A program made the position numbers and the translations under genes. Below are positions 45,249 to 46,442 of a DNA stretch of 64,000 bases, piece by piece. Source of the stretch: a virus; the UHGV virus genome UHGV-1366990; one strand, 5' to 3'. Position 1 is the first letter of the stretch. Each line of letters begins with the position of its first letter. The notes beneath the pieces were generated by a model that saw nothing but the letters and a program-made list of their open reading frames with translations, ran no database searches and had not been told where the DNA came from.

Positions 45249-46442
45249 TCAGGAAGGGGTGAATTCGTTTACAGGTATTGCTTCGGGGATAGCCAGTTCA
45301 GGGCATGCTGCCTTCATCGGATCGATGTATGGCTTGCTACCCACAATCCAGAACAGAGTGTTCTCGTTGAGCAACTCGGGCTTGTGTTGCTGAACCCAGG
45401 TCATGACCTTGCCTTCATAGCGAGGATGCAACTCAATATCGCCCCACTGATATTCCATCAGGTCATTGTAACGAACCCAATTAGTAGTATGAAGATCCCA
45501 ATGGTGTACCTCAAAGCGAGGAAGCACGACCTCTGGCTCTTCCTTCTGCCTGATACCACTTAGGAGGCCAGCCAGCGAAACGCTCTTAGAGGCATGCTGA
45601 AGCTCCTTCTTGCCGTGTACATAGTCTGGGTTGTCGTGATAGCGACGGGTGAAGTCGACAATGTGCGGCAGATTGGCATGTTTGCCGATGATGCGCAGAC
45701 GGCTCTCGATAAAGTCAAGGCGGTTAGGACCGATGCCGATCAGATACACGCGCTTCAGATTAGGCTTCGGGTGCATTGCCAGCCCGGTCAGGATGCTTGT
45801 GCAAGAGTTGCACGATCCGGCTGGGATGATCAGGTCGGTAATGTGATCAGGAATGTTGGCAACCTGCTCGCCACCCAGCATATGGAAGCCAGCGATGCGC
45901 TCAGGAGAATGCGCTGTATGGTCGAGGGTGATACCATACTCCAGATAATACGCCTTTGGATTCTGTTGTTCGATCAACTTCTTACAGCGCGGCTGGATCG
46001 TGCTGTTGTAACCCGATCCGACGAAGTTGAACTCACTACCAAACCAGGCTGACATTGCCACCATTTCATGGTTCATACAGGTGGTGGGTTTGGTCGCTCC
46101 GAGTACAGTGGTTGTCTTACCACCGAAGTGTCGAGAGACTGCTGTCGCCATAGGGGACTGCGGACTACCAACGACAGTACCATGGATGATGTCAGGGGAG
46201 CCTCCGGCCTTGAGGTGCTCAACCATCAACCAGATGGCCTGGCGGAGTTTGCTGCCGTTGATGCCCTGCTGTCCATTTGCATAATTGGACAGCGGCGCAA
46301 AATAATCTTCACGCTTGAACCAGACCTGCTGATTGGTTTCGGGGTTGACGACAAGTTCGCACGGGGTGTGCTTGTAGAGATAATCTTCCCAATGGACCAG
46401 GTTGCGGTCGAGGGAAAGGGTATCGAAGATGGTCATGTTCAT
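45249..46442 (-). CDS. PLP-dependent enzyme, fold type II (ACC deaminase / D-cysteine desulfhydrase-like)
   Basis: FKREDYFAPL...GINGSKLRQAIWLM resembles the ACC-deaminase family signature IKRDDL...GGNKLRKLEYL containing the PLP lysine; SD AGGAGA. Confidence 0.55.
   Translation of the reverse strand: MNMTIFDTLSLDRNLVHWEDYLYKHTPCELVVNPETNQQVWFKREDYFAPLSNYANGQQGINGSKLRQAIWLMVEHLKAGGSPDIIHGTVVGSPQSPMATAVSRHFGGKTTTVLGATKPTTCMNHEMVAMSAWFGSEFNFVGSGYNSTIQPRCKKLIEQQNPKAYYLEYGITLDHTAHSPERIAGFHMLGGEQVANIPDHITDLIIPAGSCNSCTSILTGLAMHPKPNLKRVYLIGIGPNRLDFIESRLRIIGKHANLPHIVDFTRRYHDNPDYVHGKKELQHASKSVSLAGLLSGIRQKEEPEVVLPRFEVHHWDLHTTNWVRYNDLMEYQWGDIELHPRYEGKVMTWVQQHKPELLNENTLFWIVGSKPYIDPMKAACPELAIPEAIPVNEFTPS

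Follow-up and report, generated by a model that had tools for sequence, protein, structure and literature searches.

The gene at 45249..46442 and its predicted cofactor site

The window, as we call the whole 64,000-nucleotide stretch of the virus genome UHGV-1366990 analysed here, carries on its minus strand a gene for a 397 aa protein that resembles enzymes dependent on pyridoxal phosphate (PLP). The records that best match the window are Ackermannviridae, the closest annotated one being the Agtrevirus Salmonella phage vB_CECAV_050, and the gene very probably encodes the last enzyme of the 5-(2-aminoethoxy)methyl-deoxyuridine (5-NeOmdU) thymidine-hypermodification pathway of the ViI-like members of this family. 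The gene, its ribosome-binding site and the elements of the predicted active site are the following.

45249..46442, minus strand: predicted PLP-dependent O-serinylthymidine (O-SerT) decarboxylase gene, ortholog of ViI gp226 / Vi01_182; ATG open reading frame (ORF) of 397 aa
46450..46454, minus strand: Shine-Dalgarno AGGAG, 7 nt 5' of the ATG at 46442, read from the sequence
46224..46319, minus strand: N-terminal PLP motif FKRED...GINGSK65LRQAIWLM, FKREDYFAPLSNYANGQQGINGSKLRQAIWLM, residues 42-73, from alignments
46248-46250, minus strand: codon of K65, the predicted Schiff-base lysine, from alignment and conservation
46149..46166, minus strand: S93-P94-Q95 motif, counterpart of S78-N79-Q80 of 1-aminocyclopropane-1-carboxylate (ACC) deaminase, aligned to GGIQSNQ of 1rqx and 1f2d
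45795..45824, minus strand: PAGSCNSCTS loop (G209, S210, N212, S213, S216), at the position of the phosphate-binding glycine loop of fold type II
45408..45428, minus strand: H339-P-R-Y342-E343-G-K345, counterpart of D-P-V-Y294-E295-G-K of ACC deaminase

The ORF is a real conserved gene and no chance ORF. Its start is well defined because, in addition to the AGGAG 7 nt upstream, an in-frame TAA lies 27 nt 5' of the ATG. The protein matches PHROG 3650, a family of 'unknown function', over residues 2-397 of 397 (E=2e-238). The gene was found in 267 phage records by megablast and the protein in 344 by tblastn, with Escherichia phage LHE287 carrying the closest relative (96.7% identical in nucleotides and 98.5% in amino acids), and a metagenome protein set held 431 homologs at E<=1e-3. 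Over 393 codons compared with the ViI ortholog there are 137 synonymous and 34 non-synonymous differences, a ratio that points to purifying selection. The ViI record gives gp226 27 extra N-terminal residues (424 aa; Vi01_182, fetched ViI stretch 32539-33813) and homologs in other records measure 400-440 aa; an extension of the ViI type is impossible in the window because of the in-frame stop. Since this stop comes together with a good ribosome-binding site at the shorter start, the number of K92, the residue proposed for the internal aldimine in ViI gp226 (PMC8989533), may be offset from the native protein.

A first-pass annotation, made from the letters alone, had compared the N-terminal signature of the protein with the motif that carries the PLP-binding lysine in ACC deaminases, and this resemblance held. 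A profile of the family, run against the PDB sequences, matched among PLP enzymes only ACC deaminases (1rqx with E=6.7e-6, 1f2d and 1j0a-e) and the D-cysteine desulfhydrase 4d8t; a single-sequence phmmer search of the same PDB sequences gave no match. In the profile alignments GINGSK65LR falls on G-GNK51TR of ACC deaminase, the PAGSCNS loop on the VTGSTT phosphate loop (CVTGSTTAG of 1f2d) and HPRYEGK on DPVYEGK of 1rqx and 1f2d, the last of these taken from a weak second domain of the match. The KRED...GGNK lysine, the S-x-Q motif, the phosphate-loop position and P-x-YEGK are thus aligned, with K65, S93, Y342 and E343 as counterparts of K51, S78, Y294 and E295.

Conservation of the lysine and of the glycine loop had been proposed as checks. 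Alignments of 30 and of 42 homologs, which extend down to about 42% identity, show K65 without exception, and the same is true of K43, R44, D46, N62, G63, R67, S93, P94, Q95, G209, N212, H339, P340, Y342, E343 and K345, while S210, S213 and S216 are nearly invariant. The glycine loop is present in position and degenerate in sequence (G209-S210-x-N212-S213). K65 aligns with ViI K92, and we infer from alignment and conservation that it is the Schiff-base lysine.

A more distant comparison was made with gp52 of Pseudomonas phage M6, a C-alpha-glycinylthymidine decarboxylase that makes 5-NedU and, as predicted for the window protein, a PLP decarboxylase of a thymine-attached amino acid in DNA. By hhalign against the family profile, M6 gp52 is weakly matched (E=6e-4, probability 28%), collinear over 210 columns, with its published candidate lysine K36 (PMC8989533) on K65 and its N-terminal TPVE...KRED...APL...SK motif aligned. 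It differs from the window protein in being 278 aa long and only distantly related, in having neither the C-terminal part nor the motif-bearing loop described below, and in its substrate, on which a radical-SAM isomerase must act first.

The fold was predicted with AlphaFold2, the input alignment consisting of database homologs only (n=42). The model has a mean pLDDT of 89.7 and a pTM of 0.89; K65 stands at the start of helix 63-78, and the only disordered stretch covers residues 277-305 (pLDDT <50 at 277-290 and 296-305). Foldseek against the PDB returned at the top Salmonella D-cysteine desulfhydrase and ACC deaminases (E 2e-11 to 1e-7, 12-17% identity, TM 0.56-0.70 on the target), and next serine dehydratase, cysteine synthases, SbnA, threonine deaminase and tryptophan synthase beta. 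There were 325 PDB matches at E<=1e-3, and 50 of the 50 matches listed are fold-type-II PLP enzymes. Pfam, which the first-pass annotation had named as a test, gave a significant match to PALP (PF00291) over residues 26-249 (E=1.7e-7, 31.4 bits), and many homologs carry a precomputed PF00291 match. We confidently predict from the model a two-domain fold-type-II PLP enzyme resembling tryptophan synthase beta, with the lysine at a helix N-terminus after the KRED strand.

NCBIfam, including its ACC-deaminase, D-cysteine-desulfhydrase and threonine-dehydratase models, gave no match to the protein at E<=0.1, and it assigned no family to the transferase or the kinase described below either. The first-pass placement among ACC-deaminase or D-cysteine-desulfhydrase-like fold-type-II enzymes stands for structure, where these enzymes (1rqx, 1f2d, 1j0a, 4d8t) are the best profile and model matches and appear nearest, whereas functional membership is not supported, given the lack of a curated-model match, a PALP score just below the Pfam gathering score and an ortholog that decarboxylates on DNA. 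Besides their low identity, these enzymes differ from the gp226 type in acting on a free amino acid instead of a residue on polymeric DNA, and in performing a ring-opening deamination or a beta-elimination instead of a decarboxylation; the window protein is also about 60 aa longer, the disordered loop included.

Orthology to ViI gp226 and the predicted reaction

The window protein and ViI gp226 (orf00226, Vi01_182, YP_004327553.1; Lee et al. 2018 PNAS, Lee et al. 2021 NAR) are identical at 359 of 393 positions (91%), in an alignment free of gaps with 34 substitutions. YP_004327553.1 is listed as 'ViI gp226, PLP-dependent decarboxylase' by Lee et al. 2021 NAR (PMC8989533), where the purified enzyme is yellow, shows a PLP-type absorbance at 410-425 nm and produces, from the O-SerT of DNA, a nucleoside of 301 u that is the same as native 5-NeOmdU. 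This conversion corresponds to -44 Da and takes exactly one carbon off 13C3,15N-labelled serine, while in a lysate mix without gp226 the product stays 44 u heavier (PMC8989533). The ViI pathway has been reconstituted with lysates (PMC5889632), and in the literature 5-NeOmdU was measured in phages CBA120, CBA6, 1.255.O and phiHS2. Reviews and a 2026 preprint describe the pathway genes as conserved throughout Ackermannviridae, with 5-NeOmdU measurable in members that infect E. coli. The first-pass proposal, in which an amino-acid adduct carried by thymidine would be matured by a PLP enzyme, thus describes exactly what the 91%-identical gp226 does.

The genomic context points the same way. A blastn comparison shows the window and Salmonella phage ViI to be collinear over 60 kb in reverse orientation, window 99-30624 corresponding to ViI 32.5 kb down to 1 and window 32059-61448 to ViI 155.6 down to 123.6 kb, and in both phages the gene lies between a tRNA cluster and the DNA polymerase gene. 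Two partner genes of the pathway are found 7-10 kb from the PLP gene on the same strand, beyond the polymerase gene.

35202..36437, minus strand: serine:DNA transferase (AADT / aGPT-Pplase2), ortholog of ViI gp247, predicted to make the O-SerT substrate
36995..38593, minus strand: 5-hydroxymethyl-dU (5-hmdU) DNA kinase 2 (HMUD2, residues 236-531), in frame with an N-terminal GIY-YIG-like homing endonuclease
40085..43084, minus strand: B-family DNA polymerase (gp43-like), ORF collinear with ViI polA

The AADT is identical to ViI gp247 at 366 of 411 positions (89%) and matches Pfam ADDT PF18724 (E=7e-60); the kinase holds a complete HMUD2 domain (Pfam PF18747, E=3.8e-156) and is 47% identical to ViI gp243. 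The likeness to ViI extends to these partner genes, to the predicted Schiff-base lysine (K92 there, K65 here) and to an internal SVSLAGLL loop. The differences lie in the 27 additional N-terminal residues annotated in ViI, in the 34 substitutions and in the lineage, ViI being a Kuttervirus and the window Agtrevirus-like. Identity, lysine, synteny and partner genes agree in assigning the window protein to the gp226 family, and from its 91% identity, its synteny, its conserved active-site residues and its partner enzymes we infer that it acts as gp226.

The pathway would then run as follows. Phage DNA would be replicated with 5-hmdU, the kinase would phosphorylate the hydroxymethyl group in the polymer, and the AADT would swap this phosphate for the side-chain oxygen of free serine, giving O-serinyl-thymidine. 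Because the linkage runs through the side-chain oxygen, the alpha-amine of the DNA-borne serine would be free. In the PLP enzyme, the cofactor would be held on K65 as an internal aldimine (Schiff base) until the alpha-amine of the O-linked serine displaces the lysine; the carboxylate would be lost as CO2 via a quinonoid intermediate, and reprotonation and transaldimination would release 5-(2-aminoethoxy)methyl-dU. The resulting 5-NeOmdU would replace a substantial share of T (about 40% in ViI) and block many restriction endonucleases.

The first-pass annotation had offered a second option, a role in host sulfur or amino-acid metabolism, in which the enzyme would be an auxiliary metabolic gene product acting on a free metabolite as an ACC deaminase, D-cysteine desulfhydrase or threonine ammonia-lyase and altering host pools. 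Such a role would suit the nearest solved structures, which are D-cysteine desulfhydrase and ACC deaminase, as well as the retained counterparts of K51, S78, Y294 and E295, and GenBank entries do bear the names 'threonine dehydratase' or 'threonine ammonia lyase'. These names, however, are automated guesses from the fold and are wrong for gp226-type enzymes; the 91%-identical ortholog decarboxylates DNA-borne O-serinylthymidine, zero curated NCBIfam models match, and identity to enzymes of free metabolites is 12-17%. Moreover, the gene always travels with DNA-hypermodification genes: in public-assembly loci that were fetched by distant PLP homologs alone, ADDT, HMUD2, HMUDK1, ThyA or Tet_JBP adjoin the PLP gene. 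We consider this alternative extremely improbable and have set it aside. It is also very improbable that the Agtrevirus lineage uses the same enzyme family to mature another adduct, with another amino acid or reaction outcome and a final base other than 5-NeOmdU. The divergent adjacent kinase with its fused homing endonuclease would be compatible with such a change, and metagenome clusters combine the pathway enzymes in many ways (PMC8989533; contig k141_1693436, with Tet_JBP, see below); but the amino acid is chosen by the transferase, which shares 89% identity with gp247, an enzyme specific for serine, the decarboxylase is 91% identical to gp226, and 5-NeOmdU was present in every ViI-like phage analysed so far, the E. 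coli phages CBA120 and phiHS2 included.

Several points weigh against O-SerT decarboxylation as the function of the window protein. The kinase, at only 47% identity to ViI gp243 and fused to an endonuclease, makes the local pathway no exact ViI copy, and three pathway genes fall outside the window: tblastn found in it no match for ViI gp67 (kinase 1), the thyA-like dUMP hydroxymethylase or gp160, which because of ViI synteny are placed beyond its ends. The biochemistry comes entirely from ViI gp226 and from DNA of related phages, and the lysine is assigned as catalytic by prediction, in PMC8989533 as well as here. Decarboxylation is an unusual reaction for fold type II, and the PALP match, although significant, remains under the gathering score of 35. 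The function of the gp226-type family itself is already known from published biochemistry and is ordinary for ViI-like phages; the enzyme finding would confirm this phage among the 5-NeOmdU-modifying Ackermannviridae. Such membership bears on the restriction resistance of the phage, on how its DNA can be sequenced and cloned, and on its host range in phage therapy.

A peptide shared with the DNA polymerase tail

The disordered loop of the PLP enzyme contains a short peptide that recurs at the C-terminus of the DNA polymerase and of pathway enzymes. The copies in the window and their counterparts in ViI are the following.

45543..45590, minus strand: internal short linear motif SKSVSLAGLLSGIRQK (SVSLAGLL), residues 285-300 of the PLP enzyme, in the disordered loop; proposed sliding-clamp-docking peptide
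nt 35205-35240, minus strand: AADT C-terminus ...SSVNLMTLLKR (motif SVNLMTLL)
nt 36998-37033, minus strand: kinase C-terminus ...SRSLLDLMKKG (motif RSLLDLM)
nt 40088-40129, minus strand: DNA polymerase C-terminal tail ...KRRVNLLAMMQKKKG, reference copy of the shared motif (RRVNLLAMM)
PLP-loop peptide in the window: KSVSLAGLLSGIR
DNA polymerase tail peptide in the window: RRVNLLAMMQKKKG
ViI polymerase counterpart: RRVNLLSMMGKKG
ViI gp160 counterpart: GSVNLLDRLKKPE
ViI gp243 counterpart: SSVSLLGLMRKA
ViI gp247 counterpart: TSVNLMSLLKR
ViI gp226 counterpart, internal: SKSVSLAGLLMGIREK

The motif is internal in the PLP enzyme and C-terminal in its three partner enzymes. The other ViI proteins examined, among them gp67, thyA, ligase, RNase H, helicases and SSB, are without it, and Serratia phage phiMAM1 has an identical set of motif-bearing proteins. 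A regular expression for the motif gave 6 matches among 1049 six-frame ORFs in 149 kb of ViI (shuffle mean 0.41, maximum 3); it was composed after five of its six matches had been seen, so the count shows specificity and is no independent test. The sixth match is the 70-aa zinc-ribbon-like Vi01_049c, whose window ortholog carries the motif too. Both the length and the sequence of the loop are hypervariable among 120 PLP homologs, yet one of several motif classes is kept, and one of these classes is PIP-box-like (L-x-x-F-F).

Vibrio phage 1.244.A retains the enteric-type motif solely within its polymerase (KKRVNLFAL), and a different motif is found at the C-termini and in the PLP loop. Among 900 ORFs, exactly 7 have [KR][KR]L[WF] as their last residues, where shuffled sequences gave 0.10 on average and at most 1. 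They are the C-terminal fragment of the polymerase, a homolog of the gp33 late-transcription coactivator, ADDT, HMUD2, a 393-aa putative gp160-like protein, the ortholog of the small zinc-ribbon protein and an ORF that lies within the split polymerase gene. The only internal [KRT][KR][KR]L[WF] in this phage is KTRRLFG, in the loop of the PLP enzyme; in the gp55 homolog, LARLF occurs nine residues short of the end. A third kind of motif occurs in Pseudomonas phage Cygsa01, in the polymerase (..ASVMDFFS), gp33 (..ASLTTLFG) and gp55 (..TSIFDAFF..), as well as in the kinase (..KNVFDLF), the AADT (..NDLMGFFQ), the gp160-like protein (..KSVLDLF) and the PLP loop (..ASLTSFFG..); a small ORF beside the ligase ends in ..NSLLDFF. 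There are 7 terminal matches among the 1362 ORFs of this phage against 0.43 expected (maximum 3). The enrichment holds for the terminal version only, a loose form of the motif anywhere in the protein being not enriched (25 observed vs 16.8 expected).

The peptide therefore differs between lineages, and the enzymes differ together. Its concerted change across enteric, Vibrio and Pseudomonas lineages suggests clamp tethering, and the tails of gp33 and gp55 change along with it in the Vibrio and Pseudomonas lineages. We favour, with some reserve, the reading in which the HMUD2 kinase, the serine:DNA transferase, the gp160 paralog and the PLP decarboxylase would be clients of the phage sliding clamp through the shared peptide. 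Hypermodification may then be physically coupled to the clamps left on newly replicated DNA, a coupling that has been proposed for T4 alpha-glucosyltransferase and is known for DNMT1 with PCNA. The fit is incomplete: ViI gp33 (..KSKKLI) and gp55 (FSLEDIM) agree only loosely with the enteric motif, and the phage clamp gene lies outside the window.

Comparable arrangements are known. Eukaryotic DNMT1 is a DNA-modifying enzyme tethered to PCNA through a PIP box. In the T4 family, gp43, gp33 and gp55 each carry a C-terminal tail that binds the sliding clamp; these motifs can replace one another and are functional also when internal (Geiduschek and Kassavetis 2010, PMC2988020), the polymerase C-terminal tail being the clamp-binding peptide in T4 and RB69 (PMC2988020), and the T4 alpha-glucosyltransferase binds gp45 (PMC13216743). 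The peptides described here resemble those of T4 alpha-glucosyltransferase with gp45, of DNMT1 with PCNA and of T4 gp43, gp33 and gp55 in being short, hydrophobic, placed in a disordered segment and common to the polymerase tail and, in two lineages, to gp33 and gp55 homologs. They differ from the known clamp clients in being known from sequence, in the internal position within the PLP enzyme and in a motif whose sequence varies by lineage.

The words 'clamp', 'gp45' and 'replisome' are absent from both pathway papers, and in open-access text we found no report that joins a clamp with hypermodification; the clamp motif is the only part of the present analysis that might be new. If the clamp reading is true, the motif would account for the way in which four enzymes, acting one after another on polymeric DNA, reach DNA that has just been replicated. 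More clamp clients of these phages could then be recognised by a simple sequence marker, and deletion or swap of the motif would give a handle on the possible coupling of hypermodification to replication.

Several further observations concern such peptides. The window ortholog of Vi01_049c (2238..2453, plus strand) is a 71-aa Cys-rich protein (CSCGG...CPCCKRH) that ends in TVNLLSLMRK, like the polymerase tail, and its Vibrio phage ortholog NVP1244A_078 ends in KTKRLW, co-varying with the other putative clamp clients. A 151-aa ORF of the window (31423..31878, minus strand) has TVNLLLLMNP, which matches the regular expression, at residue 40; this copy lies away from the termini and from any segment shown to be disordered, and may be due to chance. 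In 1.244.A (MG592609 133401-138842) the B-family polymerase is annotated in three pieces, with intervening ORFs that include a NUMOD3-type endonuclease; one of these ORFs, NVP1244A_191, has the clamp-like end ..TATRRLF. The polymerase itself has its internal KKRVNLFAL homologous to the enteric tail and an extra new end, ..KKARKLW. The large terminase of Cygsa01 (positions 1-1710 of the fetched stretch) ends in ..GGSLDDFFNN, like the polymerase and gp33 tails; the match could be accidental or could mean that packaging is linked to the clamp. One metagenomic locus (L008) showed no clear shared tail.

Kinase fusion, a metagenomic cluster, tRNAs and a repeat

The kinase ORF is a single 532-aa frame with a GTG start. 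Its N-terminal ~230 aa contain a GIY-YIG-like motif (YTYRITHVPTGRFYVGIRS...YMGSG) and match the PHROG homing-endonuclease families 15209 and 314, and this endonuclease part has no Pfam match; M228 and M230 are possible internal starts. Since the kinase is 47% identical to its ViI counterpart while the neighbour genes are about 90% identical, a replacement linked to the homing endonuclease is suggested.

An ENA metagenome contig (k141_1693436, 158 kb, T4-like) carries at 7873-12790 a locus with a Tet_JBP dioxygenase, a 255-aa ORF, a PLP enzyme, ADDT and P-loop kinase 3. Here 5-hmU probably arises through oxidation of T within the DNA and not through a dUMP hydroxymethylase. Related ends are seen in its ADDT (..NILEFME), its 255-aa ORF (..NSLEKFL), its Tet_JBP (..ADLGDWI) and its PLP loop (..NVLDFS), and a clamp gene lies 3 kb downstream of the cluster.

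At the gathering threshold, Rfam matches in the window are limited to three tRNAs, and neither a ribozyme nor a riboswitch was detected near the PLP gene. ARAGORN and Rfam both place only tRNAs Ser-GCT, Asn-GTT and Met-CAT in window 47538-48472 (minus strand), where vB_CECAV_050 annotates five (Ser, Tyr, Asn, Trp, Met); a further tRNA, degraded or unusual, may lie in the ~520-nt gap that separates tRNA-Ser from tRNA-Asn. Finally, the sequence CTAAATACCCC has four exact copies in the window against 0.49 expected (shuffle maximum 2). Two of them, at 45146-45156 and 45232-45242 (minus strand), lie directly 3' of the PLP gene and 5' of the gene at 44659..45117, and the other two, at 54883-54893 and 61041-61051 (plus strand), just 5' of large ORFs starting at 54897 and 61069. 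No copy precedes the PLP gene, and the sequence looks like a late promoter for structural genes.

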